Source: a virus
Reading direction: 5' to 3' (one strand)
Length of the DNA: 64,000 nucleotides
IMG/VR virus record: IMGVR_UViG_3300045988_144993
This document shows positions 4,089 through 36,822 of this stretch, one piece after another. The first letter of the stretch is position 1. The number at the start of each line of letters is the position of its first letter. The position numbers were made by a program, and so were the translations under genes. Under the pieces are notes generated by a model, which was given only the letters and a program-made list of their open reading frames with translations, ran no database searches and was not told where the DNA came from.

Positions 4089-4117
4089 TTGACAATAGTA
4101 TAAACCTATGTTATAAT
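4089..4117 (+). promoter_or_regulatory. sigma-A-type promoter: TTGACA-N17-TGtTATAAT
   Basis: -35 TTGACA at 4089-4094 and -10 TATAAT at 4112-4117. The -10 box and the nucleotides around it are almost identical to the promoter at 2001. Confidence 0.55.
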
Positions 4118-4703: not shown

Positions 4704-4779
4704 TTAGAAATAATTTTGAGAAAAACGCTTGACAAATGGTTAAACCTATGTTACAATGTGTATAGTAAATGATTTACTA
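4704..4779 (+). promoter_or_regulatory. promoter with conserved upstream element and palindromic operator
   Basis: Upstream element TTAGAAATAATTTTGAGAAA at 4704-4723. -35 TTGACA at 4729-4734 and extended -10 TACAAT at 4752-4757. A perfect 17-bp palindrome, TAGTAAATGATTTACTA, lies at 4763-4779. Confidence 0.6.
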
Positions 4780-5025: not shown

Positions 5026-5532
5026 ATGAGAGATTTAACAGCGTATGCAATAGAATGTATGACAGAGCTTGATAATATCGGAATTGAGTATGGAAATATT
5101 ATTGAGTTCACAGTAAATACAAGAGCAAAGAAAAGATGGGGGCAATGCAAGGCTGTTCCAGGCGGATATTCGATAAACATTAGTAATGTATTGCTTGATG
5201 AGAGAAACGATGTAAAAGGACTCAAGGAGACAATTCATCACGAGTTGCTGCATAGTTGCAAAGGCTGTATGAATCACGGCAATAACTGGAAGCGATTAGC
5301 ACAAAAAGTTAATAGAGCTTATGGTTATAATATTAAAAGGACAAATTCAGCAACCGACAAGGGTGTGCTTGAAGAAACAAGACCTCCTGTGAAACAAAGA
5401 GAAATCAATCATAAGGTTGTATGTCTTGACTGCGGACATATCTACACAAGAACAAAGATGAGCAAATTGATAACTAATACAGACCGTTACCGTTGCGGAT
5501 GCTGCGGCGGAAAGTTAAAACTTGAATATTAA
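5026..5532 (+). CDS. SprT-like zinc metalloprotease
   Basis: HELLH zinc-binding motif (IHHELLHSC). C-terminal zinc ribbon with the cysteine pattern CLDCG...CGCCGG. Confidence 0.6.
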   Translation: MRDLTAYAIECMTELDNIGIEYGNIIEFTVNTRAKKRWGQCKAVPGGYSINISNVLLDERNDVKGLKETIHHELLHSCKGCMNHGNNWKRLAQKVNRAYGYNIKRTNSATDKGVLEETRPPVKQREINHKVVCLDCGHIYTRTKMSKLITNTDRYRCGCCGGKLKLEY

Positions 5533-6786: not shown

Positions 6787-7818
6787 TTGGATAAAAAGAG
6801 GATGAACAAAATGGAAAAATGCACATTAAGTAAATTTGAAAATATTGAAATTAAAAACGATACAAGAATTGCAAAAGATGACCTTGCATTTTGTGAATCT
6901 AACCAAAGATTATATCTTAAAGTTCTCAAAAATTATCAAAATATTTATGGCGACTTGCTAAAGGTACTGCAAAAAGAACAATCACAATTTGAAAAAATTG
7001 AGATGGAGAATACTTTTACTAAAAACGGATATTCTTATAAAAAATACGATTATCATTTTTTATCAATAAATAAAGAAGATTTTGCAGAAATAATATCCGG
7101 AGTTCACAAAATTTTTATCACAACTATTGTTGATTATTTTATTGAAAAATACGGCGTAGAATTAAATGTAAAATCTGTTGACGAAATACTCGGAATTGAA
7201 AAGCCAAAGCAAGTTGATGGTAATTATTGGGGCTATCGCAACCTAACCAATGAAGAAATTGATAAAATCAAAGAAAGAAACAGAGAATATGAAAAATCTC
7301 TGGATAAATACAGAGATAAAGTTATTACAGCAAAAATTGATTTTAATACTATCATTGATGATATTTTCGTCCAATTAGACGGATATTCTTTTGTTGACAA
7401 AGTTAAGAAAGAAATCATTGATTCTTGCAAGTCTGCTTGTTTTAATCAATATAGAAAATATGGTTATGCTGAATTAAAAAAGAATAAAATTTCAATCGAA
7501 ACAGGTTTTGATAGTTATTTTAGCAGTATATGGAAAAAATATGAAGCAAGCACAGATAATTCAGCATTTAGGGCAATAATGAGAGCCTTATCATTCTTTG
7601 ATAGCGGAGAAAATAACATTTCCATTTATGATAGCTGGTATTACTCATTCATTTATTACAATAAACAAGAAACAGATGGTATTTACGGCTTGCATTCCGC
7701 ATACGGAAATAAGGTTGAATCATTCAAATTTTATAAAAACGGAAAGTGGGAAGTAAAGTTTATTTCAGAGGAAGAAGCACAGAAATTCTTCGATATGTAC
7801 TGCAAATTGGAGGCTTAA
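6787..7818 (+). CDS. hypothetical protein, paralog of 7823-8593
   Basis: Its C-terminus resembles that of the next ORF (..KNG.W.VKF.S.E.A..F...Y). Confidence 0.6.
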   Translation: MDKKRMNKMEKCTLSKFENIEIKNDTRIAKDDLAFCESNQRLYLKVLKNYQNIYGDLLKVLQKEQSQFEKIEMENTFTKNGYSYKKYDYHFLSINKEDFAEIISGVHKIFITTIVDYFIEKYGVELNVKSVDEILGIEKPKQVDGNYWGYRNLTNEEIDKIKERNREYEKSLDKYRDKVITAKIDFNTIIDDIFVQLDGYSFVDKVKKEIIDSCKSACFNQYRKYGYAELKKNKISIETGFDSYFSSIWKKYEASTDNSAFRAIMRALSFFDSGENNISIYDSWYYSFIYYNKQETDGIYGLHSAYGNKVESFKFYKNGKWEVKFISEEEAQKFFDMYCKLEA

Positions 7819-7822
7819 TAAT

Positions 7823-8593
7823 ATGAATTTATTAGATAAATTTACAGATATAAAAGTAGATAATTCAAAGAGATTACCGGCGGAAGATATGGAACATTGT
7901 AAGATTGAAGAAGAAATGTTTTTGAATGCGTACAACGCATATTCAACGGCTTATAACAGTGTCAAAAATGCTTTTGATAGGCAAAATCAATTTGATGGCG
8001 GAAAATATAGCGGCTTTATCTGGGAATATTGCGATTGTGGAATAAATGATTTAAGAAATAAACTAATATCTTTGAAGTCATCCTTTATAAGTAAAATTGT
8101 CGGATATTTTAATCGAAAATATCACTTGAATTTGTCCTGCAATAACAAATTTGATGGAACTACATATCATAAAGATTTAAGTTTAGATGTTATCACAATA
8201 GAGGAAGTTTTGGATGAATATATTTTCGGAAGATTAGAAGGATTGACATTTACAGAATGTGCAATTAAACAAGCTATGGAGAAGAACGACATCAAACGGC
8301 AAGAATGGAATAAATGGTGTGAAAAATGGAATTATTCAGTTAAAGGAAGAGCTATTAAATTCCAATACTCAATCACAGACCAAAAACCGCTTCTTTACTT
8401 CTACGATAACAACGAAACAGAAGTATGTTCGACATTAAAACATAATAAGATAGATTCTATTCAAGAATTTAAGAATGGAAGTGTATCAGTTAAGTTTTTG
8501 TCTGCTGAATTTGCATTAGAATTTGCAAAGAAATATCTTGGATATATTGAAATGACCGATGAAGAAATAGAAAAACTGAAAGCGGGAAATTAA
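7823..8593 (+). CDS. hypothetical protein, paralog of 6787-7818
   Basis: Shares the C-terminal motif of the upstream ORF. Lies directly before the methyltransferase-helicase gene. Confidence 0.6.
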   Translation: MNLLDKFTDIKVDNSKRLPAEDMEHCKIEEEMFLNAYNAYSTAYNSVKNAFDRQNQFDGGKYSGFIWEYCDCGINDLRNKLISLKSSFISKIVGYFNRKYHLNLSCNNKFDGTTYHKDLSLDVITIEEVLDEYIFGRLEGLTFTECAIKQAMEKNDIKRQEWNKWCEKWNYSVKGRAIKFQYSITDQKPLLYFYDNNETEVCSTLKHNKIDSIQEFKNGSVSVKFLSAEFALEFAKKYLGYIEMTDEEIEKLKAGN

Positions 8594-8594
8594 A

Positions 8595-11500
8595 ATGAAA
8601 TATATTGTTGAAAATTTGATAATTCCACAAGATAAACGGGCAGAGATTAACAACAAAATTCTTTATTTGATTGACAACGGAATAGCGGAAGAAAACGGAA
8701 TAACTGCAACTGACATAGCAAGCTCATACACCGGAAACGGTGGATTAAGTGGAGAAAAATTTTCAAACTATGAAAATTATTATGATTATTCAGAAGCCAA
8801 AAAAGAATTTGAACAAGGACAGTTTTTTACACCGTATGCCATTACCGATTTTGTAATACAATGTTTGAAACCGGACAAATTCGATATAATTATGGATTTA
8901 ACTTGTGGTCACGGAGCTTTTGCCAATTCTGTTCCCCAGGAAAGTAATTTCTTTGGTTGTGAAATTGATATGAAATCTTATAAGGTTGCAAAATATTTAT
9001 ACCCAAAAGCAAATATCCGGTGTTCAGATATAAGAGTATATAATCCTGAAATAAGAGCAGATGTTATTGTCGGAAATCCACCATTTAATTTGAAGTGGCA
9101 AATTGGAGATACGACTTATGTATCACAACTATACTACACAATTAAAGCATCGGAGAATATTAAACCGGGTGGTTTAATGGCTCTGGTAGTTCCATCAAGT
9201 TTTCTGGCGGATGATTTTTCCGATAGAGGAATGATAGAAGAAGTTTCAAAAGAATGGAATCTATTATGTCAGTTTGACATTCCTTCAGATACATTCAAAA
9301 ATCTCGGCGTTACTAATTTTTCTACTAAAATTATGTTTTTCCAAAAGAAAAGCGAACATATTTTAGATGTAAAATTTAGCACGAAAAAAATTGCAATTGA
9401 TTGTCTTAATATAGAATCTTCAAATTTCATTTATGAAAATTATATAAAGCCTGTAATCACTTTAAGAAATAAGTTGAAAAATCAGTTGTTTTTTGAAAAT
9501 TTACACGATGGCAAGACTCAAGAACAAAAACAATTTGAATATAAAGTTAAAAAAATGATGTTTGATATTAAGAGAAATCCTGCTTTACAGGATAAATATG
9601 CAAAATGCAGCGAGTATCTTTACAAATACCAAACACAGAAAATGCCAGAAGGAATGAAGTATGAAGAATGGGAAAAGAGGAAAATCACGCCTAATAAGGT
9701 ACTTGCCTATTTAAGAAAAGTTATCAAATCTGAACATAAAGTTGAAATTGATAAGATTGAATTAGTAAAAACTGATTATGGCTTAAAGTTAAAACCATAT
9801 AGCCGTAAAATGAAAATCTTATTGAATAAACAATATGGAGATTTTGGAAAATTTGTATCTATTAACGATATTGTTTCAGGTCAATGTTCATATCAATTTG
9901 AAAACAAAAAGTATGAAAAACTTATTGATAAGAAAATTAAAGATTTTCAAAGTAATGAAGTATCATTTAAGGATATGAAACAAGATTCTAATATAATGAA
10001 ATTTCTTGATAATTTTTCTATCCACGATTATAACAAAAATGAAACTTATAAGTTGACGGAAAAGCAAAAAGAAGATATAAATAAACTTTTGCAGAAAAGA
10101 TATGTTTTCTTGCAGTGGGAACAGGGTAGCGGAAAAACTTTTGCCGGCATAGCTCAAATGGATTATAGATTCCAACACAACAATATTAGAAATGCTTTTG
10201 TAATCTCTACTGCTATCGCGATAAATAACAACTGGCAAGATTGCCTTGAGGCTTACCATTATGACTATATAAGAATCAATAGTTATTCGGATATTCAGAA
10301 GATTAAAAAAGGACAAATTGTTTTAATTACTCTTGATATACTCAATACTTTACAAAAACATATTAAGAAATTTGTTAAAATGCAATCTCAAAAAGTTATG
10401 CTTGTAATGGATGAAAGTGATAGCATATCAAATCAAAATAGCAAGAGAACAAAAGCAGTATTAAGTTGTTTTAGAAAAATTAAATACAAAGTATGTATGA
10501 CCGGAACAAGCACACGAAACAATATTTGTGAAATTTACCCTCAACTTGAATTGCTTTACAATAATAGCGTTAATATGTTGTGTGAATGTGAAACTGTTTA
10601 TGTTGTGGATAAAAATAAGGATTCTGAAACCAAAGGCAAAATTATTTCCGATTTTAATAAACAATATAATAATCCATTCCCAGCATATAAGAAAGGATAT
10701 TCATTATTCAGCAAATGTTTTCTGCCAGATAAAATCACTGTATTTGGAGTTGTTAAAAAAACACAAGATATATATAATTCAGAAGCATTGAAAAAATTGC
10801 TTGACAAAACGATAATCACAAGGAAATTTGAAGAAGTCACAGGCAAGAAAATTTACGAAATCAAAAATGTCACTTGTAAATTCACACCGGAAGAAGAAGC
10901 ACTATATTCAATAGCAATAGAGGAATTTTATAAAATGCAATATCTATTTAAGACAACAGGAAACAGCAGAAAAGATGCTATGTTGAGAATCTTAAATCAA
11001 TTAACTCTTTTGCTTAAAATATGTGCTTGTCCTCACACATTCAAAGAATATTCTTCAACTGAATTGTCGAGTAAATATAAAAAAGTATTTGAGATGATTG
11101 AAAAGTGGAATAATGAAAGAATTGTAATAGGTGTTCGCCACGTTGACAATGTTTATTCTTATGCCACGGCAATTAAGGAATTATATCCGAATAGACCATT
11201 GTTTGTTATTACCGGAAATAACACAACATTAAAGAAAAGAATATCAATTTGTAATGAACTGAAAAAAACAAGAAATGGTATTTTAATTTGCACACAGCAA
11301 TCATTATCGTGCAGTATGAATATTGACTTTGTAAATAAGTGTATTATTCCAGAATTGCATTGGAATAATGCAAGTATGAGTCAGTTTTATTTTCGATTTA
11401 TCAGATTCACTTCTACGGAATGGAAGGAAATATATTTTGTAACTTATGAAAACAGTATAGAAGGAAATCTGTTAAAAATGATTCTGTGTAAAGAAAAATT

Positions 11501-11657
11501 GAACCTTTTTATGAAAGATGAAAAAGTCGAAGATGATGACCTATATAGTAAGTTTGGAATTAACGAAATGATGCTAAAGGCGTTAATGACAAAGGGAAAG
11601 GACGAGAAAGGCAATATTAAAATCTTATGGGGTCATCAAAAAATCACAAACGATTAG
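8595..11657 (+). CDS. N6-adenine DNA methyltransferase fused to an SNF2/DEAD-like helicase (DarB-like)
   Basis: N-terminal methyltransferase motif I (IMDLTCGHGAF) and motif IV (VGNPPF). Helicase motif I (GSGKT), motif II (DESD), motif III (TGT) and a C-terminal Q..R block. Confidence 0.75.
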   Translation: MKYIVENLIIPQDKRAEINNKILYLIDNGIAEENGITATDIASSYTGNGGLSGEKFSNYENYYDYSEAKKEFEQGQFFTPYAITDFVIQCLKPDKFDIIMDLTCGHGAFANSVPQESNFFGCEIDMKSYKVAKYLYPKANIRCSDIRVYNPEIRADVIVGNPPFNLKWQIGDTTYVSQLYYTIKASENIKPGGLMALVVPSSFLADDFSDRGMIEEVSKEWNLLCQFDIPSDTFKNLGVTNFSTKIMFFQKKSEHILDVKFSTKKIAIDCLNIESSNFIYENYIKPVITLRNKLKNQLFFENLHDGKTQEQKQFEYKVKKMMFDIKRNPALQDKYAKCSEYLYKYQTQKMPEGMKYEEWEKRKITPNKVLAYLRKVIKSEHKVEIDKIELVKTDYGLKLKPYSRKMKILLNKQYGDFGKFVSINDIVSGQCSYQFENKKYEKLIDKKIKDFQSNEVSFKDMKQDSNIMKFLDNFSIHDYNKNETYKLTEKQKEDINKLLQKRYVFLQWEQGSGKTFAGIAQMDYRFQHNNIRNAFVISTAIAINNNWQDCLEAYHYDYIRINSYSDIQKIKKGQIVLITLDILNTLQKHIKKFVKMQSQKVMLVMDESDSISNQNSKRTKAVLSCFRKIKYKVCMTGTSTRNNICEIYPQLELLYNNSVNMLCECETVYVVDKNKDSETKGKIISDFNKQYNNPFPAYKKGYSLFSKCFLPDKITVFGVVKKTQDIYNSEALKKLLDKTIITRKFEEVTGKKIYEIKNVTCKFTPEEEALYSIAIEEFYKMQYLFKTTGNSRKDAMLRILNQLTLLLKICACPHTFKEYSSTELSSKYKKVFEMIEKWNNERIVIGVRHVDNVYSYATAIKELYPNRPLFVITGNNTTLKKRISICNELKKTRNGILICTQQSLSCSMNIDFVNKCIIPELHWNNASMSQFYFRFIRFTSTEWKEIYFVTYENSIEGNLLKMILCKEKLNLFMKDEKVEDDDLYSKFGINEMMLKALMTKGKDEKGNIKILWGHQKITND

Positions 11658-11685: not shown

Positions 11686-12300
11686 ATGAAAGATAATAAA
11701 TTTACAAAAAGAATGAGTGACAAAGGGAAATTGACTTGGCAATATTTCACTATGGCAGCAATTACATTTGTTATAATTCTTGCCGTTGTTATGGGAATAT
11801 TCTTTATCTGTTCACATTCAAAAGTAGTGGCAATGACACCAGACAATATAAATGTGTCATTGATTGAGCAGAAAGGCACACCTACGGCGCAAACTATGCT
11901 TATGAATATAAATACAAGCAAAGAGCCTGAAAATGCAACACGGGGCAATACAGAGGGCAATATGTCTGAATATATAAATCTTGGAGAATTTCGTTTGGCG
12001 GTGTATTGCTCGTGTTCAGTTTGTTGTGAACAGTATGCAAGTAACAGACCGATAGACAAAGACGGTAATGAAATTGTATATACTGCATCAGGAAAAATTG
12101 CAAAATCAGATTAAACTATTGCAGCAGACCCTTCGGTTCTTCCATATGGTACTATTGTTTACATAAACGGTCACAAATATGAGGCACAGGATTGTGGTGG
12201 AGCAATTAAAGGAAACAGTATTGATATATACTTTGATAATCACGAAGATGCTCGTAAATTTGGTGTGCAATATGCTAATGTATTCACAGAAAGAAATTGA
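11686..12300 (+). pseudogene. 3D-domain (MltA/YocH-like) protein with an in-frame TAA
   Basis: An N-terminal transmembrane segment followed by a 3D domain (TASGKIAKSD[TAA]TIAADPSVLPYGT...GGAIKGN.IDIY). The TAA sits where a sense codon is expected, at about 12112-12114. Confidence 0.5.
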
Positions 12301-12366
12301 CAAAAGAATATTACATAGTATAATAGTAAATAGATTACCATACTATTATATGTTGGAGGAGTTTGA

Positions 12367-12696: not shown

Positions 12697-12725
12697 TTGA
12701 CAAATCAAAAATTATGTTATATAAT
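12697..12725 (+). promoter_or_regulatory. sigma-A-type promoter with upstream element, followed by a structured ~170-nt leader
   Basis: TTGACA-N17-TATAAT. The next 170 nt (12730-12898) hold no ORF and contain a 9-bp-stem hairpin at 12810-12842. Confidence 0.5.
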
Positions 12726-13979: not shown

Positions 13980-14501
13980 ATGAAGTTTAAAGACATTCCG
14001 AGATTCACAAGACCCGGCTCATATCAAGTAAATATGCCACTTGACCGCTTTGCAAAATGGGTCAATGAAAATGTAGAAGAATGTGGTCTTGAACTCAATC
14101 CAGATTTTCAGAGAGGTCACGTTTGGACGGAGAAACAGCAGATTGCATATATTGAATTTCTGCTCCGCCGTGGCAAGTCCGGCAGAGTCATCTATTTCAA
14201 CTGTCCTACTTGGAGTCACGGCGGCAGAGATGGTTGGTTCGTGTGTGTCGATGGTCTGCAAAGAACCACAGCCATTATGCGATTTATCAACAATGAAATC
14301 CCTGCCTTCGGATGCTACTACAAGGATTTTGAAGATAGACTTCCGATGGAGATTGATGTCCTTGTGAATATCAACGAACTACAAACCAGAGAAGAAGTTC
14401 TGAAATGGTATATTGAGATGAACGAGGGTGGTACTCCACATTCAGAGGAAGAAATCAACAAAGTAAAAATATTGCTTAAAGAGATAAGTGCAGAGATATG
14501 A
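13980..14501 (+). CDS. DUF262/ParB-like nuclease domain protein
   Basis: FQRGHVW...DGLQRT motifs. This domain is the N-terminal part of GmrSD-type restriction enzymes; here it stands alone at 173 aa. Confidence 0.5.
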   Translation: MKFKDIPRFTRPGSYQVNMPLDRFAKWVNENVEECGLELNPDFQRGHVWTEKQQIAYIEFLLRRGKSGRVIYFNCPTWSHGGRDGWFVCVDGLQRTTAIMRFINNEIPAFGCYYKDFEDRLPMEIDVLVNINELQTREEVLKWYIEMNEGGTPHSEEEINKVKILLKEISAEI

Positions 14502-14875: not shown

Positions 14876-14926
14876 TTGACAAATATAAAAGCGTTTGCTA
14901 TAATGATTATAGTAAATGAATTACTA
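14876..14926 (+). promoter_or_regulatory. promoter with upstream element and palindromic operator
   Basis: Upstream element TTAGAAATAATTTTGAGAAA at 14851. TTGACA at 14876 and extended -10 TATAAT at 14899. Palindrome TAGTAAATGAATTACTA at 14910-14926. Confidence 0.55.
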
Positions 14927-14969
14927 CAACACAAAAACACGAAACACATACAGAAAGAGGTATTTATTA

Positions 14970-16804
14970 TGGCAACTATTACAATGAATAACGAAAAGAA
15001 CGGAATTGAAATCAGATTTGACGGTAAGCCTGAAAGTTCAATTATTGTAGCACTTAAAGAGAATGGTTTCCGTTGGAGTGGAAAGCAGAAAATGTGGTAT
15101 GCAAAGCAGAGTGCAGATAGAATTTTATTTGCTGAAAGTCTCGGAGAATTTTCTTCTCCTATTAAAAACAAGGCTGAGCAACACGAAAAATACAACTTGT
15201 GGGAAATGACAAGAACGGATGGAATTGAGGATAATTACAGTAAATATCATATCTATAGCACCAAAGAAATCGCAGCTATAATCAGAAAAAATTTAAGAGC
15301 GAGATTTCCTATGTGTAAATGGTCAATAACAAGTGATTATAATAGCATTTGCATTGACCTGCTGGCTTCCCCATTTTGTTCTGAAAGCGATGAAATTAAA
15401 GCCATTATACATTATGCTTATAAGTTTGCAGAGAGTTATAACTATGACAATAGTGATTCGATGACGGACTACTTTGATGTCAATTTCTATGGCGTATATG
15501 AAAGTAGCATTTTAAGTCATCATTATGAGCAGAAGGAAATGACTGACGATGATAAAGAAATGTGCAAAGTGTTTCAGCAGAACAAGGTAGATTTTGAAGC
15601 AGCCGAAGAAATCCGCAAGCAGAAAGAGTTTGAGGAACAGATGAAGCAGAGAGAAATCGAAGAAGCCGAAGCTAAAAAGCGTGCTGAAATCCGCAAAGCA
15701 AATGAAAAGATTATCGAAGATAACCACACAGTTAAAAAAGTTAATTATACTATCGTGAATGCCATTCTAAAGGCTAACAAAGATGACAACCTTGACCACA
15801 CTGAAATTTATGACGAAAAACAGTGCAGAGAAACTTGTCAGGTTTCCAGAGAAGTACATTTTACCACAGAGGTCTATGTACTTTTTGAAAAACAGTTGAT
15901 GAGCGATTATTCATTCTTTGATGGAATGGGCGGAAGCCGTACAGATGACCGTAGAATCCAATCATCAATAGACTATGATATGATGACCGAAGAAGAAAAG
16001 GAAACTGTCGAGTGGTACAATATTGATTGCGTTGCTATATATTGTGATGGTGAGCTGAAACTTATCGTTGACCCACAGGGTTACAATTATGCAAGATATG
16101 TATATGTTTACGATGAGCAGAGCCAAAAGGTTGATACTTACCATTCAGATTATGGTATTAGTGAAGAAGAACATCAGCATAATATTGAACTTGCAGAAAC
16201 TATTGAAGATGTCAGCACCGAGATTATCAGTCAAAATGAAATCAAAAAGACCTGGCAGAATGAAGATTTTGATTTATATAAGGCTTGTATGAAAGAATGG
16301 ATTTATGCAAATAAATTCAAGTTGAATGCCGGCATTGTCAGGGCAATTACAATTCCCGAACTTAAAACGGTTATGTATAAGGTTCTTACAGAAGTTGACA
16401 GCATAGCGGAACAATTCAAAAATACAAATCTTGAGGCAGGACAGAGAATCACAATCGTAAAGTATAGCGACTTTGGTATGATGTCGGTATCAAAAGTAAC
16501 ATTTCATAGTTACGAAATCGGACAATACGCACAGTATGATAATTCTGTGAAAATGACATTCAAGCCGCATAGAAAGAAAGGTCTTTATTATAAGTGGTTT
16601 TATGGAGATGTTATCATCTACAATGGATGGTATGACCTTCCTGATACAGTTCTGTTTGATATATCATACAAAGAACATTGTATTACACAAAAATCTAAAT
16701 GGGTATCATTTGATAGAAAGCAGTATGATGCTATACTTGAATACTTTGCGGAACAAGGATTGAAACCGATTATCAATACTTATAAACCACAATTTAGAAA
16801 GTGA
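14970..16804 (+). CDS. hypothetical protein (612 aa) with a K/E-rich coiled-coil segment
   Basis: Start trimmed to the ATG after ribosome-binding site AAAGAGG. Confidence 0.55.
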
Positions 16805-21316: not shown

Positions 21317-21367
21317 TTGACATTCTGGCATACATATGATATACTATCCATAGTAAATGATTTACTA
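21317..21367 (+). promoter_or_regulatory. integrase promoter with palindromic operator
   Basis: TTGACA at 21317 and extended -10 TATACT at 21340. Palindrome TAGTAAATGATTTACTA at 21351-21367, identical to the one at 4763. Confidence 0.6.
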
Positions 21368-21386
21368 CACAGGAGGTAGTGAAATA

Positions 21387-22340
21387 ATGAATACAAACAC
21401 AGTAAAAATCACACCATTATTCCAGAAAGTCGGAATTGATATTATTGAATTTCCTCAACAGGATAAAGCAACGAAATTAAAGAAAGATGGAACACCAAAA
21501 AATATTGTGTGCAACAAAAAGAAAGGCAAGAAATCAGAAGTTTATGCTATTGAAATTCCTGATATTAAGAAGTTAATAGATTTCTTTTATCAAAATGAAA
21601 TGTGGCAACATTATTTGATTTTCGTTTTGTCCTGTAATATGGCTCGCCGTATTGGTGATACACTTACTTTGACTTGGGAGCATTTCTTTAATCCGACAAC
21701 TGGTGCGATGAGAAATGACTTGCTTGAAATCGTAGAGGACAAGACCGACAAGCTCGCAAATCCTCATATCAATTCAGCTTGTAAAAAAGCAATTCTGCTT
21801 TATATTGAAAAAACAGGTATCAATCCTGCCGAAAACAATTATAAGAATTATGTTTTTGTGCAGACCAGCGGAAACTATAAAGGTAGAGTTATTACTGATG
21901 ATGGCTACCGTAAAGGCTTGAAAAAGGCTGCTGTTCAAGTTGGTATTGAGTATAACATTGGAACTCATAGTCCTCGTAAAACTTTTGGTATGATTAGTAG
22001 GATGTTGCATCCAAATGATTATGATAGTATGGAACTCCTTCAGACTATCTATAATCATAGCGATACCAAAACAACAAACCACTATATCGGATTAACAAAG
22101 AAGAAGATTGACACCTACTATGATGATATGGGTTCATTTTTTGATGATTATGTCACAGGTGATAAAACATATATGGAAGTTGCAGAGCAGCCCGTAGTAA
22201 GTATTGATACTAATTCTTTGAGAGATATTATCAAAGAGGCATATAAAGCCGGAGCAGAAAATGCAGATAACACCGACCCTGTTATTCACATTGATGCAAT
22301 CAACAAAATTATCGGTATGATTGAAGGAGTGGCAAAGTAA
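21387..22340 (+). CDS. int: tyrosine site-specific recombinase (phage integrase)
   Basis: ARRIGDTLTLTW (catalytic Arg I), HSPRKTF (HxxR box) and NHYIG (catalytic Tyr). Confidence 0.8.
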   Translation: MNTNTVKITPLFQKVGIDIIEFPQQDKATKLKKDGTPKNIVCNKKKGKKSEVYAIEIPDIKKLIDFFYQNEMWQHYLIFVLSCNMARRIGDTLTLTWEHFFNPTTGAMRNDLLEIVEDKTDKLANPHINSACKKAILLYIEKTGINPAENNYKNYVFVQTSGNYKGRVITDDGYRKGLKKAAVQVGIEYNIGTHSPRKTFGMISRMLHPNDYDSMELLQTIYNHSDTKTTNHYIGLTKKKIDTYYDDMGSFFDDYVTGDKTYMEVAEQPVVSIDTNSLRDIIKEAYKAGAENADNTDPVIHIDAINKIIGMIEGVAK

Positions 22341-23559: not shown

Positions 23560-23588
23560 TTGACAGATAACTCTTAACTTGCTATAAT
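23560..23588 (+). promoter_or_regulatory. sigma-A-type promoter: TTGACA-N17-TGcTATAAT
   Basis: Sequence match to the shared promoter architecture. Confidence 0.55.
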
Positions 23589-26174: not shown

Positions 26175-26555
26175 ATGTTATATGAAGAAATGCGATTGCG
26201 AAAGACTGGCGAAACTGTAAGAGTATATGCTATTGCCCCTTCGGAAAATATAGCAACTATATTCTCTACTTCTCAATATACTAAAACAAATAATGGATGG
26301 CAGAAAATTAAGCTATCCCAGTTAGTTCCGATGGATTTTCCTATTAACAATAAAGATTATATTTCTAAAACAAAGAAGAACAAAGCGAAAGATAGAATGA
26401 AATTGATTGAAGCTACTTGGCAAACCAGTGACGGAAATCTTTGGAATCATTCTGACATTGATTCAGCAGTGGAACACGAACTTTTTCTTATGAGTTTAGA
26501 GGAAGTTTGTCTTTACTCCGATGGCAATAAGGAAAATATAGGAGGTCAAATATGA
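26175..26555 (+). CDS. hypothetical protein
   Basis: ORF with ribosome-binding site AAGAGAA. Confidence 0.5.
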   Translation: MLYEEMRLRKTGETVRVYAIAPSENIATIFSTSQYTKTNNGWQKIKLSQLVPMDFPINNKDYISKTKKNKAKDRMKLIEATWQTSDGNLWNHSDIDSAVEHELFLMSLEEVCLYSDGNKENIGGQI

Positions 26556-27616
26556 TTAAGTTTATTGATAAAAAGAATAGATTTGTTGAAATGTTTGACA
26601 AGAATACAGGTTTTTATGTTAGAAGTGGAGTTATGGGAGAATATGGAAAAGATACCGGTGTTGACCCATTTATGAGATGCTTTCCAGCACTTATTGATGT
26701 TGGTATTATGAATAAATGTGTTTGCGCTCATAAGTGTAATGTTGACTGTTATCAGAGAGCCATCGACCGTCACGGAGATAATATGTCTCTTGAAGATTAT
26801 AAGTCAATCCTTGAACAGTGTAAAGGCAAAACATTTCAGTATGCTTTGGGTGGAGCAGGAGACCCTGATACACACGAAAATTTCAAGGAAATTCTTGAAT
26901 TATCAAAAGAGTATGGTATCATACCAAACTTCACAACATCAGGAATTATGATGACAGAAGAAAAAGCAAAACTTTGTAAAGAATATTGTGGAGCAGTTGC
27001 CGTATCAGAACATTTTGCTGATTATACAAGAAAAGCTATTGATATGCTTTTGTCTGCCGGAGTAAAGACAAATATTCATTATGTTCTTGGTTCTGATTCT
27101 ATCGACTATGCTATTGAGCGGTTGAAGAACGGTGGGTTTGATAAAAGGATAAATGCTGTTGTATTTCTTCTTTACAAGCCCATTGGTCTCGGAAGAAAAG
27201 AAAATATTTTAACAATGGATAATCCAAAAGTCAAAGAATTTTTTGAATTAGTTGATACAGGTAATTATCCTCATAAGATAGGCTTTGATTCTTGCTCGTG
27301 TGGTGGAATTGTAAACTTTTCACAGCATATTGATATGAACAGTATCGACTTCTGTGAGGGTGGCAGGTATTCAATGTATATTGATTCCGATATGAATGCT
27401 ATGCCTTGTTCATTTGGTAATCAGGATAGTAAGTATTTCGTGAGTCTGCGTAAATATTCTATTGAAGAAGCGTGGGAGAGTGAAATATTTAATCAATTCA
27501 GAAATTCTCTCAATCATTCTTGCCCTAACTGTAAAGATAGAGCAATGTGTGGCGGTGGTTGCCCCATTTGTCGAGATATTGTTTTATGTGACAGAAAGGA
27601 AAAACATTTACTATAA
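26552..27616 (+). CDS. radical SAM enzyme with a C-terminal SPASM domain
   Basis: N-terminal cysteine cluster CVCAHKCNVDC, which is not the canonical spacing. GGAGDP SAM-binding motif. C-terminal SPASM-type cluster CPNCKDRAMCGGGCPIC. Confidence 0.65.
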   Translation: MIKFIDKKNRFVEMFDKNTGFYVRSGVMGEYGKDTGVDPFMRCFPALIDVGIMNKCVCAHKCNVDCYQRAIDRHGDNMSLEDYKSILEQCKGKTFQYALGGAGDPDTHENFKEILELSKEYGIIPNFTTSGIMMTEEKAKLCKEYCGAVAVSEHFADYTRKAIDMLLSAGVKTNIHYVLGSDSIDYAIERLKNGGFDKRINAVVFLLYKPIGLGRKENILTMDNPKVKEFFELVDTGNYPHKIGFDSCSCGGIVNFSQHIDMNSIDFCEGGRYSMYIDSDMNAMPCSFGNQDSKYFVSLRKYSIEEAWESEIFNQFRNSLNHSCPNCKDRAMCGGGCPICRDIVLCDRKEKHLL

Positions 27617-29935: not shown

Positions 29936-30703
29936 TTGCCGACAAATAACAAGAATATGCACTCTAATGATAAAGAGTATCTAAAAGAATGTCTTATTAA
30001 AACCAAAGAGTATTTAGCTAACTTAAAATTAACGCTTAATAACAAGACTGAAATTGTTCCTATGAGTAAAGGCATTAGATTTCTTGGCTTTCATACATAT
30101 TTGACCGAGCAAGGTAATGTTATAAGAAAACTAAATGGAGATAACAAAAGGCAAGTTAAAAAGCGTTTAAGAAAGTACGCAAAGTTAGTAGCACAAGGAA
30201 GAATGAAGCGAGAAAAGTTCAATGAGATTTACTGTTCTTGGCGGAATCACGCATCTCACGGTAACTGTTTCAAGTTGATTTATGAAATGGATTTGTTTGT
30301 GGAAAATTTATTTAATGAAGAAAAACCTGAAATAAGGGTTATTATTGCCGGTAGTAGAGACTTTAATAACTACGAACTATTGGAAAAGTACCTTAATAAA
30401 TTCGTCAAAGAACACCCTAATAATAAGATAGCTATTATAAGCGGTGCTGCTCGTGGTACAGACCAACTCGGAGAAAGATATGCCAGAGAAAAGTGCATAT
30501 TATTAAAGAGGTTTCCGGCAAATTGGGAACAATTCGGTAAAAGGGCAGGTTATATTAGAAACATTCAAATGCTCGACTATATAGATGCATCTACCTGCGA
30601 TTCATATGTGTTTGCATTTTGGGATGGAAAGAGTAAAGGAACAAAACAAATGATTGATAGTGCTAAAAAACGAAATATACCGTATCAAATTGTAGCATTT
30701 TAA
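29936..30703 (+). CDS. fusion of a reverse-transcriptase fragment (post-YADD, thumb-like) with a DUF2493/SLOG-like domain
   Basis: N-terminal ~120 aa (..GIRFLGFHTY...YCSWRNHASHG) resemble the motif 6-7/thumb region of group-II-intron or retron reverse transcriptases; the fingers and palm are missing. The C-terminus (IIAGSRDF..ISGAARGTD..FWDGKSKGT) matches the SLOG fold. The tracked ORF uses a TTG start. Confidence 0.5.
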   Translation: MPTNNKNMHSNDKEYLKECLIKTKEYLANLKLTLNNKTEIVPMSKGIRFLGFHTYLTEQGNVIRKLNGDNKRQVKKRLRKYAKLVAQGRMKREKFNEIYCSWRNHASHGNCFKLIYEMDLFVENLFNEEKPEIRVIIAGSRDFNNYELLEKYLNKFVKEHPNNKIAIISGAARGTDQLGERYAREKCILLKRFPANWEQFGKRAGYIRNIQMLDYIDASTCDSYVFAFWDGKSKGTKQMIDSAKKRNIPYQIVAF

Positions 30704-32963: not shown

Positions 32964-33038
32964 GCGAATATAGTGTAAAGGTTAGCACGCAAGTTTTCCA
33001 AACTTGAAGTGAGAGTTCAATTCTCTCTATTCGCTCCA
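32964..33038 (+). tRNA. tRNA-Gly(TCC)
   Basis: Acceptor stem GCGAATA/TATTCGC. Anticodon stem CAAGT/ACTTG with loop TTTCCAA. T-arm GAGAG-TTCAATT-CTCTC. CCA is encoded. Confidence 0.75.
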
Positions 33039-33043
33039 TATAT

Positions 33044-33119
33044 TGGGGTGTCGCCAAGCGGTAAGGCACAGGACTTTGACTCCTGCATTTCGTTGGTTCG
33101 AGTCCAACCACCCCAGCCA
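33044..33119 (+). tRNA. tRNA-Gln(TTG)
   Basis: Acceptor stem TGGGGTG/CACCCCA. Anticodon loop CTTTGAC. T-loop GGTTCGAGTCC. CCA is encoded. Confidence 0.75.
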
Positions 33120-33122
33120 TAT

Positions 33123-33213
33123 GGCGAGGTAATCCTAATGGTAAGGAAGCAGTTTGCTAAACTGTTAGTAGCCGGAAAACGGTGTGTGAGTTCGAGTCTC
33201 ACCCTCGCCGCCA
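33123..33213 (+). tRNA. tRNA-Ser(GCT)
   Basis: Acceptor stem GGCGAGG/CCTCGCC. Anticodon loop TTGCTAA. Long variable arm. CCA is encoded. Confidence 0.7.
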
Positions 33214-33327
33214 GTAATCTAATCGCAATTATTAGATACCTAAAATAAAGCGAATAAATAAGGGGTTGAGTGGTACGATACAAACTCTATGCCTTGCAGA
33301 GTTTATACCACAAGCAAGGTAATATAT

Positions 33328-33403
33328 AGGAGGGTAGTTTAATGGAGAACTCCGGTCTCCAAAACCGATGTAGATGAGGGTTCAAATCCTTCCTCTCCTG
33401 CCA
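33328..33403 (+). tRNA. tRNA-Trp(CCA)
   Basis: Acceptor stem AGGAGGG/CTCTCCT with one G-U pair. Anticodon loop CTCCAAA. T-loop GGTTCAAATCC. Confidence 0.6.
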
Positions 33404-33791
33404 GGTAAGTGAGAGATAAATATGCGATTAAAAGGTACAGCCTTTGTATTGGACGAGAAAGGTTTTCTTATTCATAGTTACGAGTCTCAATGCCGAAGTA
33501 CAAGGTGCATATACTCGCAGGTCGAGGGTTGGAGCAACGACTCGAAATAAAGTCTCCAAAATGTTTCCCGATGTTCAGTACACAATCGGCATAGAGGCAA
33601 AGGGTTAAAGGTGTTCGTATAATGACCAGAGATGGAAATTGCCAGAAGTCTGAAAAACCTAATTCTCGTAAGTCTATGAAGAAAGGAATAGCCTTTATTA
33701 GTGGGTGCGATAATGACGATTATCTAAAGGACACTAATTAGCGGTAGAATTTAAGTGTTGCAACACGAAAGACGTAGAGCCGCCAAAACAC

Positions 33792-33866
33792 GCATATGTA
33801 GCCAAATGGTTAAGGCAGCGGACTGCAACTCCGTCATTGCTGGTTCAATTCCAGCCATATGCTCCA
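33792..33866 (+). tRNA. tRNA-Cys(GCA)
   Basis: Acceptor stem GCATATG/CATATGC. Anticodon loop CTGCAAC. T-loop GGTTCAATTCC. Confidence 0.75.
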
Positions 33867-33872
33867 ATATAT

Positions 33873-33948
33873 GTGGTTGTTAGTGTAACGGTAAGCACGG
33901 CAGTTTGTGACACTGCAAGAAAAGGTTCAATTCCTTTACTTCCACCCA
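33873..33948 (+). tRNA. tRNA-His(GTG) with encoded G-1 and C73
   Basis: Anticodon stem GCAGT/ACTGC with loop TTGTGAC. T-arm AAAGG-TTCAATT-CCTTT. The acceptor stem (TGGTTGT/ACTTCCA) has two adjacent U-U mismatches at pairs 4:69 and 5:68. Confidence 0.6.
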
Positions 33949-33956
33949 ATATATAT

Positions 33957-34032
33957 GTGCCAGTAGCTCAATCGGTAGAGCAATCGACTTTTAATCGGTA
34001 GGTCGGAGGTTCGATTCCTCTCTGGCACACCA
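33957..34032 (+). tRNA. tRNA-Lys(TTT)
   Basis: Acceptor stem GTGCCAG/CTGGCAC. Anticodon loop CTTTTAA. T-loop GGTTCGATTCC. Confidence 0.75.
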
Positions 34033-34034
34033 TT

Positions 34035-34169
34035 GATGGCTGAAAATACTCATCCTTCTAAATCTTTTGCCTGTTAAGCAAGAGGTTGTCGGTTCGAGTC
34101 CGGCACTACCCCGTGGGTAGTTAGCTCAATCGGATAGAGCGCTTACAAGAATAGAGTATAAAATTTCCA
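34035..34169 (+). repeat. repeat unit U0 (long class) carrying a permuted tRNA-Asn-like domain
   Basis: Conserved blocks GATGGCTG and TCATCCTTCTA (34050-34060), and AAATTTCCA (34161-34169). Confidence 0.6.
34066..34146 (+). ncRNA. circularly permuted tRNA-like domain (Asn-GTT-like)
   Basis: Gene order: anticodon stem-loop TTTGC-CTGTTAA-GCAAG, then variable region, then T-arm GTCGG-TTCGAGT-CCGGC, then acceptor 3' strand ACTACCC plus C, then GT, then acceptor 5' strand GGGTAGT, then D-arm GCTC..GAGC, then anticodon-stem 5' strand. The two acceptor strands are perfectly complementary. Confidence 0.5.
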
Positions 34170-34275
34170 TCAAATTTCCCTTAACGGCTATATTGAAACT
34201 TCCTTCTATTAAAGAAATTGGGTTCTAAATAGTTTCAATGATTACCGACAAATTAAAACAAAGGAGATTATTACA

Positions 34276-36540
34276 ATGAAGAATTTCAAATTAACAGAAC
34301 TTGATAAGATTTTGTTACGCCGTAAGCATTCAGTGATGTTTGAACCTGCTAATATGACTTATGAGCAGAGCAAGACAGAAAAAGCACTCGTTGTTTCCGG
34401 CTTGAAAAATGTTCAGGCTCTTGGATTTACATTTTCAAAGGAACTTATTGAAAAAGCATTTCATTTTACAAGAGATGAGTTTACTGCTTTCTATGGTTTT
34501 CTTATTCCTGCACTTAAAGAACTTGTTGGTGCGGATGTTACATATAATCCAATGTACCCGAACTTTCCACAGCAGGTTGCAGAAGCAAGTGACATTGAGT
34601 TATTCATCAATGCAATCGTTCATTACTGGTCATTTGGCACATTGATTCCCGAATACGAAAAAAATGAGCGTTTACCGCTTATTGATGACAATAAAATGGC
34701 TGTTTTATCAGTAGGAAGTCACGATGATTTGATGACTATTTTCACAAATCTTGTTGAGAGCAAGACATCAATCTCGGAGCAGGACAAAGAGGACATTGAA
34801 ACTATCATTCTTGCTTGTCCTGATTATACTACATATCTTCCTGATACAATCCCTCTTAAAGAGAATGTTGCGTTCGTTGGAAAACTCATTATTGAAAAAG
34901 CACCAATCAAAAGCGCCGATTCAATAGGCAAATACTTCAAGACCGCAACGGATGTTTTACGACTTGTAACAGCACTTTCCGATGGCGACATTAGCCTTGC
35001 TTCAAAAACCAAGTACAGAAATCTTCGTAGGGTTGAACGCCGTATGATTATGGACTTGCTTACTGGTTGTGGTAACATAACAGAGGATTTATTCCGTTAT
35101 CAGTATGAATGGATTAGAGTTGCAGAAATTCTTCATCCGTTTGAATATAAAAAAGCAAAGTATAGCAATGTCAACGCTGCATTCAATACTTTAAGAAACG
35201 AGAAAAAACCTCTTATGTTTGCAGGAAAGGTTCAGGCAGCAATTACCGCAAAAGATATGCGTGAAGCTGCCACCTTGTTAAAAGCAAGACCCGGAGAGTT
35301 CGCAAGGCAACTTGACAAACTGATTCGTGATGCAGATAATCCGAATTATATTGTCAACTGTTTTAAGGAAGTTGCAACAGAAATCTCAACTCCTGTACTC
35401 CTTCAGGTAAGACAGCATTTCATAGGAAGAATGGAGAATGATAATCAGCCTGTAAGAGTATTCTTTCCTAAAGGAAACCTTGCAAAAGCTATGGTTATCA
35501 GAAATGAACTTCCTAAAATCAATAGTAATGTATGTAAAAATGTTGCAAGGATTTGCCGTGAGGCTTTAATTGAACAGTACAAGGAAAAAGATTTTCTCGG
35601 AAAGGTTTATATTGATGAGGATTTCAAAAACTACCTTGTTCCGTTTAGTCAGAGAAGTGCAAGTAAGGCTGTTAAGACCATTGTTCGTGGTAGCAAATTG
35701 CCCATTAAGGAAGATGCTGCGGCTGTTCGTGGTTTTATCTGGTGGACTAATACCGATAAGACGAGAAATAGTTGGGATGCCGGCAATTATTGCAAAGGCA
35801 GGGTTGATATTGACCTTTCTGCAACCATCTATGATGAAAATTGGCAGTATGTTGACCGTGTATCATACACACAACTTCGCTCTGCAAAGTACAGAGCATA
35901 TCATTCGGGTGATATTACCAATGGCGGAAATGTTAATGGCGATGGTGTAGCAGAGTTCATTGATGTAGAGATTGATGCGGTGGCTAAAAATGCCGGTAGA
36001 TACATTGCATTTCAGGTTTATAGTTTTACACGACAGCATTTTTCTACGCTTCCTAATTGCCGTTTCGGATGGATGGAAAGAGAAGATGTAAATAGCGGTG
36101 AGATATTCGAGCCGCAAACAGTTGAAATGAAGATTGACTTAACTGCTGACAGCACTGTTGCTATACCCGTTATATTCGATTGCGTTGAGCGTAAATTCAT
36201 TTGGTGTGATATGAACCTTCAAAATGCAAGTTCGAGGTTTTATGGAAATAATCTTGAAAGTAATTTACACGGTGTAACCGCAACTTGCTATGGCTTAACA
36301 CATCTTAATAAGGCAAATATTTATGACCTCATAATGATGAATGCTATTGCAAGAGGTAGTATTGTCACAGATAGAAATGAAGCAGACATCATTTTCAGCA
36401 ATGATACAACAGTACCTTATGAAATTGTAAATGAGCTTGACGAGGTTACGGGTACTACAAAACCTGTTGTAAAGGAAAAGCCGGAAGTTCCGATTATCAC
36501 GGCTTTCGATACTGATTACTTTATGGGTCAGTTATTATAA
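34276..36540 (+). CDS. large protein with a C-terminal TerD-like domain
   Basis: From about residue 470 the pattern DIDLSATIYDENWQ...YHSGDITNGG..GDGVAEFIDVEID...IAFQVYSF matches the TerD/TerZ fold. The N-terminal ~460 aa are unassigned. Confidence 0.55.
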   Translation: MKNFKLTELDKILLRRKHSVMFEPANMTYEQSKTEKALVVSGLKNVQALGFTFSKELIEKAFHFTRDEFTAFYGFLIPALKELVGADVTYNPMYPNFPQQVAEASDIELFINAIVHYWSFGTLIPEYEKNERLPLIDDNKMAVLSVGSHDDLMTIFTNLVESKTSISEQDKEDIETIILACPDYTTYLPDTIPLKENVAFVGKLIIEKAPIKSADSIGKYFKTATDVLRLVTALSDGDISLASKTKYRNLRRVERRMIMDLLTGCGNITEDLFRYQYEWIRVAEILHPFEYKKAKYSNVNAAFNTLRNEKKPLMFAGKVQAAITAKDMREAATLLKARPGEFARQLDKLIRDADNPNYIVNCFKEVATEISTPVLLQVRQHFIGRMENDNQPVRVFFPKGNLAKAMVIRNELPKINSNVCKNVARICREALIEQYKEKDFLGKVYIDEDFKNYLVPFSQRSASKAVKTIVRGSKLPIKEDAAAVRGFIWWTNTDKTRNSWDAGNYCKGRVDIDLSATIYDENWQYVDRVSYTQLRSAKYRAYHSGDITNGGNVNGDGVAEFIDVEIDAVAKNAGRYIAFQVYSFTRQHFSTLPNCRFGWMEREDVNSGEIFEPQTVEMKIDLTADSTVAIPVIFDCVERKFIWCDMNLQNASSRFYGNNLESNLHGVTATCYGLTHLNKANIYDLIMMNAIARGSIVTDRNEADIIFSNDTTVPYEIVNELDEVTGTTKPVVKEKPEVPIITAFDTDYFMGQLL

Positions 36541-36548
36541 AAGTATTT

Positions 36549-36650
36549 TGTGGCTATGGGCTTTCTTCCTTCTACAAGAAAATAATTTCGGTGGTTAAGC
36601 CACCTACATAATGATGATAAGATAGAAAGTTCGATTTCCACTATTCATAA
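36549..36650 (+). repeat. repeat unit U1 (degenerate)
   Basis: TGTGGCT, then TCTTCCTTCTA, then ATTTCCA. Internal hairpin GGTGG-TTAAG-CCACC. Confidence 0.45.
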
Positions 36651-36652
36651 TT

Positions 36653-36726
36653 TGTGGCTGTAATGCTCATCCTTCTACATAATATCAAGAACTGCAAATT
36701 CTTCTAAAAAGAGCATTAAATTTCCA
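36653..36726 (+). repeat. repeat unit U2 (short class, 74 nt)
   Basis: TGTGGCTG at 36653, TCATCCTTCTA at 36667, AAATTTCCA at 36718. Anticodon-arm-like hairpin AAGAA-CTGCAAA-TTCTT at 36687-36703. Confidence 0.55.
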
Positions 36727-36745
36727 CACCTCTTTCTAAATATTA

Positions 36746-36822
36746 TGTGGCTATTGTTTTTCATCCTTCTACGCCAATAGGCACTTGATTTGGGATTAAG
36801 ATTTCAGAGAAACAAATTTCCA
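36746..36822 (+). repeat. repeat unit U3 (short class, 77 nt)
   Basis: TGTGGCT at 36746, TCATCCTTCTA at 36761, AAATTTCCA at 36814. Hairpin CTTGA-TTTGGGA-TTAAG at 36784-36800. Confidence 0.55.

Follow-up and report, generated by a model that had tools for sequence, protein, structure and literature searches.

What does the fusion of an adenine methyltransferase with an SNF2-type helicase do for a phage, and what do the two genes in front of it contribute? The question is raised by a locus in the viral IMG/VR record IMGVR_UViG_3300045988_144993, from which a stretch of 64,000 nucleotides (hereafter the window) was analysed. The original prediction, made from the letters of this DNA, had described three open reading frames (ORFs), the last of which was read as a DarB-like anti-restriction protein and the two preceding ones as mutually paralogous, possibly injected partners. 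All three were found on the + strand exactly where they had been placed: A at 6787-7818, B at 7823-8593, and the gene for the 1020-aa methyltransferase-helicase (MH) at 8595-11657.

MH is a new member of an already described class, the DNA methylase-helicase dyads, and not a DarB orthologue. Its family is known but functionally untested, and is thought to aid the escape of phages and plasmids from host restriction on entry into a new cell. What the present locus adds is a near-obligate, co-inherited partner family without known fold, represented by A and B and thus duplicated in this phage lineage. We favour, with moderate confidence, the view that A, B and MH form an early-expressed entry or establishment module which methylates the element's own DNA against host restriction.

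Domain architecture of MH

The predicted union of an N6-adenine methyltransferase and an SNF2-type helicase in one protein was borne out by Pfam domains (N6_Mtase at aa 65-261, SNF2-rel_dom at 506-813 and Helicase_C at 827-938, with further DEAD and ResIII matches) and by the PDB relatives found by sequence, namely yeast Snf2 (the best, E 1.4e-9), M.TaqI, and HsdM of StySJI and EcoKI. Methyltransferase motifs I and IV (DLTCGHGAF, GNPPF) and helicase motifs I, II, III and VI (GSGKT, DESD, TGTST, QFYFRFIRF) had been named in advance and are all present. Across 113 diverse homologues the motifs are kept as YtG.GGLSGE, GQFFTP, DlT.G.G.F, GNPPf, GsGKt, DEsD, tgTsTRN and QfyfRFiRf, and the catalytic motifs of MH are all intact. 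Also as predicted, Pfam revealed no nuclease domain in MH, and PADLOC and NCBIfam added neither a nuclease nor an effector.

The N-terminal part of MH (8595-8795, + strand; aa 1-67) is a predicted LPD36-type helical domain with the GxGU motif TGNGGL at aa 46-51, in which G.GG is kept in at least 90% of the 113 homologues. Since the library (Pfam) scan gave no LPD36 match to MH, this assignment rests on the motif and on the alignment with DarB. It is followed on the same strand by a gamma-class N6-adenine DNA methyltransferase (8796-9377; aa 68-261; GQFFTP, DLTCGHGAF, GNPPF; N6_Mtase E 2.2e-11), by an inter-domain region (9378-10049; aa 262-485) that is more variable than the catalytic domains according to conservation and the structural model, and by a SWI2/SNF2-type ATPase (10050-11657; aa 486-1020; GSGKT, DESD, TGTSTRN, QFYFRFIRF; SNF2-rel_dom E 1.2e-12, Helicase_C). 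In the AlphaFold model of MH (pLDDT 76), the N-terminal helical domain has helices at residues 12-27, 38-44 and 62-73; it precedes a Rossmann-fold methyltransferase (81-251), a helical bundle (273-381), a small alpha/beta domain (388-486) and RecA-like lobes at 489-660 and 842-951 with helical insertions between them. Residues 261-320 and 401-480 are more variable, and the helical bundle and the small alpha/beta domain are free of indels like those of target-recognition domains.

The DNA methylase-helicase dyad was defined by Iyer et al. (2017, PMC5512222) as an LPD36 domain (about four helices, GxGU), an EcoKI/TaqI-like N6-adenine methyltransferase (TP, NPP[YF]) and a SWI2/SNF2 ATPase, with DarB as the archetype, and it was proposed that the motor lets the methyltransferase modify injected DNA (PMC5512222). 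MH contains an LPD36-type domain, a gamma-class methyltransferase with TP and NPPF, and a SWI2/SNF2 ATPase with helical inserts. The dyad is not embedded in a large polyvalent polypeptide in this case; MH consists of the dyad alone.

Demonstrable homology with DarB itself is confined to the N-terminal module of MH. Residues 12-285 align with residues 44-308 of D6 DarB at 24% identity (BLASTP E 2e-14; YTGNGGL in MH, YTGEGGL in DarB), hhalign gave 96.6% over the same stretch and nothing beyond it, and the DarB-like phrog_10089 covers only aa 111-255 of MH, within the methyltransferase. The helicase halves gave no alignment by BLASTP or by hhalign with a single DarB sequence. The DarB-like reading of the original prediction therefore stands for the class of architecture (LPD36, methyltransferase and superfamily 2 (SF2) motor), but demonstrable homology ends at aa 285, and the window offers neither Dar accessory genes nor a virion-gene context.

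Distribution and gene neighbourhood of the MH family

The MH family comprises more than 1,750 proteins at E <= 1e-20 and is tight in length (985-1025 aa). Full-length homologues with 46-52% identity were found on Bacillus and Lysinibacillus plasmids, a Vescimonas plasmid and a C. botulinum plasmid-prophage; the closest annotated relatives, at 50-52% identity over the full length, are carried by pLS20-family conjugative plasmids. Tenacibaculum jumbo phages encode full-length homologues at 39% identity, and further full-length homologues are present on many IMG/VR contigs. The GTDB species-genome collection yielded 312 candidate MH stretches, the best 80 of which come mostly from Clostridia and Bacilli. 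Chromosomal loci in these two classes are neighboured by DUF932, DUF4313 and recombinase genes and look like mobile elements. MH thus belongs to a compact subfamily of ~1000 aa that is carried by Bacillota plasmids, mobile-looking chromosomal elements and phages.

Neighbouring genes were clustered in 166 related loci. Only MH (166) and its partner (153), the family of A and B, are near-universal, and the next family, found in the same gene run in 49 of the 166 loci, consists of DarA_C-domain proteins (PF18789, E 7e-21). These proteins of ~270 aa are encoded between the partner and MH in ~48 of the loci, viral as well as genomic (e.g. L128:3711-4520; L020-L034, L098-L136), and constitute the one real remaining link to the Dar system; no DarA_C gene was found in the window. 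No conserved nuclease, PLD or other effector was detected among the neighbours in the 166 loci, and the other recurrent neighbours gave no informative PHROG or Pfam matches.

A and B belong to a co-inherited partner family

The predicted paralogy of A and B was confirmed by BLASTP, which aligned colinear segments in the N-terminal half (E 4e-8) and at the C-terminus (E 2e-4), and both proteins match phrog_27491 (A, E 3e-36; B, E 5e-22). As called, A has 343 aa from a TTG at 6787. Its true start is most likely the ATG at 6811, since this codon lies ~10 nt past an AAAGAGG site and the protein then begins MEKCTLSKFENI..., in agreement with the N-terminus of its homologues; A would thus be a long-form partner paralogue of 335 aa (6811-7818, + strand; phrog_27491 E 2.6e-36). 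B (7823-8593, + strand; 256 aa) starts 4 nt past the stop codon of A and is preceded by a GGAGG site, and the start codon of MH follows 1 nt past the stop codon of B. The further suggestion that the two proteins are Dar-type partners did not hold, as the profile hidden Markov model of the partner family matched none of D6 Hdf, DarA, DdrA, DdrB and Ulx.

Contexts inspected by hand showed a partner gene directly upstream of MH on a B. subtilis plasmid, a C. botulinum phage-plasmid, gut phage contigs, a Paenibacillus chromosome and plasmid pBatNRS213, whereas Tenacibaculum phage pT24 has it 2.3 kb downstream of MH. Linkage was then surveyed in loci for which 1 kb or more of upstream sequence was available, a partner being counted when encoded on the same strand within 6 kb. 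It was linked in 141 of 150 loci (~94%), comprising 72 of 74 from species genomes (directly adjacent upstream in 56) and 69 of 76 on viral contigs (directly adjacent in 53), with a median gap of 18 nt at the adjacent junctions. Pairwise divergence of the partner and of MH was strongly correlated over 126 loci (r = 0.93, a value reached by 0 of 500 permutations in a Mantel test), the partner being the faster-evolving protein (mean identity 31% vs 52% for MH). The partner is therefore a near-obligate, co-inherited companion of MH.

Of the two paralogues in the window, B is the cognate copy, since it is translationally coupled to MH and its nearest relatives outside this lineage are the partners of MH's closest relatives. 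A is an extra, divergent copy; its nearest non-lineage relatives are solo partners of other methyltransferase-helicase genes (31-32% identity). Two partner-domain genes upstream of MH occur in other lineages as well (L008, L011, L017 and the L098 type), often as a long fusion together with a short solo protein. An exhaustive profile search recovered 705 cluster representatives of the partner family, mostly solo proteins of 270-330 aa, and in ~20 of the top 150 representatives the domain is located at the C-terminus of proteins of 500-995 aa.

No Pfam model matches the partner, it is not among the Pfam LPD families, and no sequence relative was found in PDB. It is a separate and previously unnamed family, set apart here by comparison with the LPDs of Pfam, and carries an invariant N-terminal peptide, MNLLDKFxNIxIxNxxRI. 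A confident AlphaFold2 model of B (pLDDT 86, pTM 0.76) comprises a long helical hairpin, further helices and a C-terminal beta-beta-alpha-beta-beta-alpha unit, a fold for which no convincing structural match was found. The idea that the partner is a hidden nuclease was rejected, as it has no PD-(D/E)xK, HNH or PLD signature or fold.

Transcription signals

Seven perfect TTGACA-N16-18-TATAAT sites are present in the window, all on the coding (+) strand (2001-2029, 4089-4117, 12297-12324, 12697-12725, 14876-14904, 23560-23588 and 37013-37041), compared with 0.13 expected by chance, and five of them lie within the first 15 kb. The probable promoter of the MH operon, at 4729-4757 on the + strand, agrees with the sigma-A consensus in 11 of its 12 positions (TTGACA-17-TACAAT, with TG). 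This site belongs to a repeated cassette of 70-120 nt with an A/T-rich upstream part, sister copies of which, at 2001, 4089, 12697 and 14876, are 12/12 matches. Because no further cassette and no convincing terminator was found between the 4729 site and 11657, we infer a single operon that runs from this promoter through small ORFs and a SprT-like peptidase gene to A, B and MH. The consensus promoters probably denote early units that are transcribed by the polymerase of the host.

Neighbouring genes and phage context

The SprT-like zincin metallopeptidase with a zinc ribbon (5026-5532, + strand; Pfam SprT-like E 3.9e-10) stands in the same co-directional run as A, B and MH, and the gene order is kept in relatives L004-L006. 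Just 3' of MH, a membrane-anchored protein with a 3D domain (cell-wall hydrolase-like) is encoded at 11686-12303. Its frame is interrupted by a TAA at 12112-12114 and stays open past it (...KSD*TIAADPSVLPYGT...). An alternative genetic code was rejected, since reassigning any one stop codon merges no genes across the window; together with the tyrosine found at the corresponding codon in a 99%-identical relative (L091), this identifies the TAA as a nonsense substitution or sequencing error and not as recoding. In relatives with 83%-identical MH, an IS605-type OrfB/TnpB gene directly follows MH instead (L004/L005:13178-14365), and the region after MH is thus a variable spot.

Two further genes on the + strand encode domains of the kind found in polyvalent proteins. 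The first product, of 173 aa (13980-14501), is of the ParB/GmrSD_N (DUF262) type (Pfam GmrSD_N E 1.5e-11) and gave weak PADLOC matches to NsnA and PD-T4-2_A. ParB-like domains are among the domain types of polyvalent proteins (PMC5512222), and this protein may be a solo version of them; it is tied to the A, B and MH module by context only, through its location in the same region. The second is an LPD29-domain protein (Pfam LPD29 E 5e-11), called at 14876-16804 with 642 aa. The TTG called as its start, at 14876, doubles as the -35 hexamer of a perfect promoter; translation probably begins at an ATG near 14969 (MATITMNNEKNG...), which gives a gene at 14969-16804.

The LPD29 protein matches phrog_27491 at positions 326-385. 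Two of its segments, aa 33-89 and 272-464 (numbered from the 14876 start), are shared by the N-terminal parts of fusions that carry the partner domain at their C-terminus, among them P0174, P0204, P0234, P0251, P0276 and P0298; P0207 combines LPD29, LPD25 and the partner. Its small N-terminal KNGIEIRF...GFRW domain also recurs in polyvalent proteins ending in a partner domain. These fusions suggest a functional link between the LPD29 protein and A and B, and since the partner domain is fused in LPD29-type proteins, the partner can be regarded as a module of the polyvalent-protein world.

All long ORFs of the window lie on one strand, save three short antisense ones, and the GC content is ~33%. 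Thirteen tRNA genes are clustered at 32964-39231 (Gly, Gln, Ser x2, Trp, Cys, His, Lys, Arg, Leu x2, Pro, Met), and a Thg1-like tRNA-His guanylyltransferase is encoded after the cluster, at 39668-40519. Apart from the latter, the enzymes encoded in the window include an NAD-dependent ligase, a tyrosine recombinase (21357-22340), a DHH phosphoesterase, a MetK-like S-adenosylmethionine (SAM) synthetase and a PurA-like protein. A radical-SAM-like ORF (26552-27616), a YspA/SLOG (YAcAr) domain protein (29936-30703) and a LemA-family protein (57777-58343) were also noted. In the SAM synthetase (55297-56361) all three MetK domains match (E 1e-18 to 1e-36). The enzyme could supply the cofactor to MH or to other SAM-dependent enzymes, and its presence would fit a heavy demand for SAM. 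The divergent adenylosuccinate-synthetase-like ORF at 60595-61794 matches phrog_1211, which carries a PurZ-type annotation (2-aminoadenine (Z) genomes); its best PDB match is an ordinary PurA, and DatZ or MazZ was not recognised nearby. Replacement of adenine by Z in the phage DNA would, if true, matter for an adenine methyltransferase.

No structural gene was clearly recognised in the 64-kb window, whose features suggest that it represents the non-structural portion of a large phage. The phage carrying MH is a large gut phage: in IMG/VR, MH loci that are 96-99% identical at the protein level lie on viral contigs of up to 128 kb, and the contigs with 83%-identical MH originate from human gut metagenomes. 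No near-identical annotated phage emerged when the locus and 24 kb of the window were compared by megablast with 50,697 phage records. The place of the module relative to the contig ends varies among the IMG/VR relatives, and this inconsistency does not allow any inference on which DNA enters first.

A proposed entry or establishment module and its alternatives

The analysis establishes the domain architecture with its intact, conserved motifs, the co-inherited pair, its carriage by phages, plasmids and mobile-looking chromosomal loci, and its placement behind host-type promoters; methylation and its specificity, early timing of expression, a complex of B with MH and protection against restriction are inferred. 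After DNA entry, the sigma-A RNA polymerase of the host would transcribe the early operon from the strong consensus promoter. B, and perhaps A, would be made in step with MH by translational coupling and would probably bind it. The SNF2 motor would track MH along the element's own double-stranded DNA, where the EcoKI/TaqI-type domain would use SAM to methylate adenines at N6, and host restriction sites would thereby be masked, be it in the genome that has just entered or in progeny DNA under replication. In such a scheme the partner would most likely be a stoichiometric loading, targeting or regulatory subunit.

Several lines of evidence argue for this establishment role. The combination of LPD36, an N6-adenine methyltransferase and SNF2 has a proposed anti-restriction function, with the genetics of DarB as a precedent (PMC5512222), and the closest annotated relatives make up a putative establishment operon (operon C, see below) of conjugative plasmids. 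The carriers are phages, conjugative plasmids, a plasmid-prophage, mobile-looking loci and, as cargo, integrative and conjugative elements (ICEs). The neighbours are of polyvalent-protein types (DarA_C in relatives; SprT-like, ParB-like and LPD29 in the window), the partner is linked to and co-inherited with MH, and no effector is conserved with it. The perfect host-type promoters are early-type signals. Finally, the families most strongly enriched in plasmid leading regions include orphan methyltransferases (PMC11541004), and the phage encodes its own SAM synthetase.

Other points weigh against it. The main weakness is one of timing, since a methyltransferase made after injection of double-stranded DNA may come too late for the incoming genome; MH might act on progeny DNA instead, or might be packaged in the virion. 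We know of no experiment on any member of the ~1000-aa family. A target-recognition domain was not identified in MH, the role of the partner is a guess because it has no recognisable fold, and the promoter evidence consists of consensus matches, so that early expression is read from the sequence. One chromosomal Paenibacillus copy (L007) lies amid ordinary-looking genes. In the plasmids, transient expression after transfer was described for ardC of p576 (repressor Reg576), the assays on EGeRS1-B of pLS20 were confined to reporter constructs, and the genes of operon C are putative establishment genes (PMC8708921).

The timing problem would be solved by a pre-made protein, as in a true DarB-type mechanism, in which MH (and perhaps A and B too) is synthesised late, enters the capsid and is injected with the DNA, which it protects in cis against type I restriction before any phage gene is expressed. 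DarB is a 250-kDa head protein present in ~40 copies per virion, with its N-terminal 30 residues as a targeting signal, and its loading is the final step of a pathway dependent on Hdf, DarA, DdrA, DdrB and Ulx (PMC9024508). The homology of the LPD36 and methyltransferase module to DarB and the DarA_C genes that accompany MH in 49 related loci speak for such a mechanism. In the window, however, comparison of the ORFs with the D6 Dar proteins revealed no homologue of Hdf, DarA, DdrA, DdrB or Ulx, and there is neither a DarA_C gene nor a clear structural or morphogenesis gene in the 64 kb, the operon standing instead behind host-type promoters. Moreover, the N-terminus is conserved in phage and plasmid MH alike, which argues against a phage-specific capsid-targeting peptide, and the closest relatives reside on conjugative plasmids, which have no capsid. 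We therefore consider packaging and injection unlikely.

The pairing of a methyltransferase with an SF2/SNF2 motor is also typical of type I, III and ISP systems, DISARM and BREX, and a compact two-gene module that moves between chromosomes, plasmids and phages could serve defence or exclusion of competitors: the methyltransferase would mark self, and the motor with the partner, which could hide an effector, would block or degrade unmarked DNA. PADLOC gave weak matches to mad2, DpdE and DrmD, but the family-specific models fail (MAD2, 45.7 bits vs 720; DrmD, 12.6 bits), no nuclease, PLD or other effector is conserved nearby, and the model of the partner contains no nuclease fold. On pLS20-family plasmids the pair belongs to a predicted establishment regulon together with ardC-type genes. 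This makes a defence function very improbable. Least probable of all is a general role in DNA metabolism or regulation, with the SNF2 part remodelling nucleoprotein, recycling RNA polymerase in the manner of RapA or aiding recombination, and methylation serving as an epigenetic timing or packaging mark. RapA and the Snf2 helicases of jumbo phages have been proposed to act in transcription or recombination (PMC7824862), and the window is rich in nucleic-acid enzymes (ligase, Thg1-like protein, tRNAs, recombinase). MH, however, does not lie beside replication or recombination genes, its SNF2 part is fused specifically to a DarB-type LPD36-methyltransferase, and the pair is patchy accessory cargo across unrelated elements and not a core function.

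A more far-reaching and tentative proposal, which we regard as possible though rather unlikely, is that MH and an obligate partner subunit together make up a two-component translocating methyltransferase. The partner could act as a dimerising specificity or DNA-loading subunit, like a half-size HsdS, with its own fast-evolving middle region setting target or substrate choice, and A and B would provide two specificities or a heterodimer. If true, this would define a widespread, unrecognised class of entry methyltransferases in Bacillota mobile elements that is mechanistically distinct from DarB.

In the large polyvalent proteins that phages and conjugative elements encode, the dyad is one of the commonest combinations of domains, and it is known from stand-alone genes as well. 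To our knowledge, genetic data exist among its members for DarB only, and biochemical data for none. The MH enzyme itself would not surprise a specialist; the two-gene simplicity of the module could make the long-standing question of how dyads work tractable, and the partner without known fold offers a concrete new handle on it. With a single small partner and the tractable pLS20-family plasmids of Bacillus at hand, the module is probably the simplest system in which to study how an SNF2 motor and an adenine methyltransferase work together to bring foreign DNA past restriction. If it works as proposed, it bears on the host range of gut phages and on the spread of plasmids among Bacillota.

Comparison with known systems

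Type ISP and type III restriction-modification systems, as well as DrmD with DrmMI of DISARM, resemble MH in coupling an N6-adenine methyltransferase with an SF2 motor that moves along double-stranded DNA. They differ from the MH module in having an effector of the nuclease or PLD type and a discernible target-recognition domain, neither of which was found in it. With PADLOC, MH gave only generic methyltransferase-domain matches (mad2, 63.9 bits; DrmD, 12.6 bits; DpdE, 21.8 bits), and the NCBIfam MAD2 model scored 45.7 bits against a cut-off of 720.

DarB and MH are both phage-carried and share the order of an LPD36-type domain with GxGU, an EcoKI/TaqI-like N6-adenine methyltransferase and an SF2/SNF2-class ATPase. 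MH is far smaller, at 1020 aa compared with 2278 aa for D6 DarB (~2255-2278 aa for DarB in general), and lacks the ~500-aa spacer and the ~800-aa C-terminal extension of DarB. The genomic settings differ too: D6 darB sits among ulx, pmg, portal, ddr, darA and head-morphogenesis genes, whereas MH follows sigma-A consensus promoter cassettes and is accompanied by a partner family of its own, unrelated to the Dar accessory proteins.

The polyvalent dyad proteins contain the same triad of domains and are likewise found on phages and conjugative elements. The domain types located near MH (SprT/zincin peptidase, ParB-like and LPD29, with DarA_C in relatives) are those catalogued for polyvalent proteins; in the window they are distributed over separate genes, in contrast to the one giant polypeptide of the polyvalent proteins. 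In its stand-alone form, the dyad has been reported as variable ICE cargo in Faecalibacterium (2025, PMC12084326).

The closest counterpart comes from conjugative plasmids. In six reference plasmids of the pLS20 family and pBS72, Val-Calvo et al. (2021, PMC8708921) described 14-20 putative establishment genes each, arranged in operons behind a repeated structured element, EGeRS1. The putative "establishment operon C" of pBatNRS213 and pBglSRCM103574 (our matches H32 and H36) encodes two proteins, the first of 262-269 aa and of unknown function, the second an N-6 methylase/P-loop NTPase of 1009-1011 aa (UFD97648/97646 and WP_128748555/WP_128748429, respectively; PMC8708921, Table S5). An EGeRS1-type element of 420-750 bp precedes operon C, and a repeated element of ~600 bp was confirmed upstream of the partner gene in pBatNRS213 (L009); in the window, the only such repeats are the 70-120-nt promoter cassettes. 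The plasmids have a single partner gene compared with two in the window, pBatNRS213 has a 71-aa ORF between partner and enzyme, and the carrier is a conjugative plasmid in one case and a phage in the other. The operon C enzyme is orthologous to MH over its full length at ~50-51% identity (50.7% for pBatNRS213), its partner (262 aa in pBglSRCM103574, 269 aa in pBatNRS213) is 26% identical to B (E 1e-19), and both systems have the same order of partner followed by enzyme.

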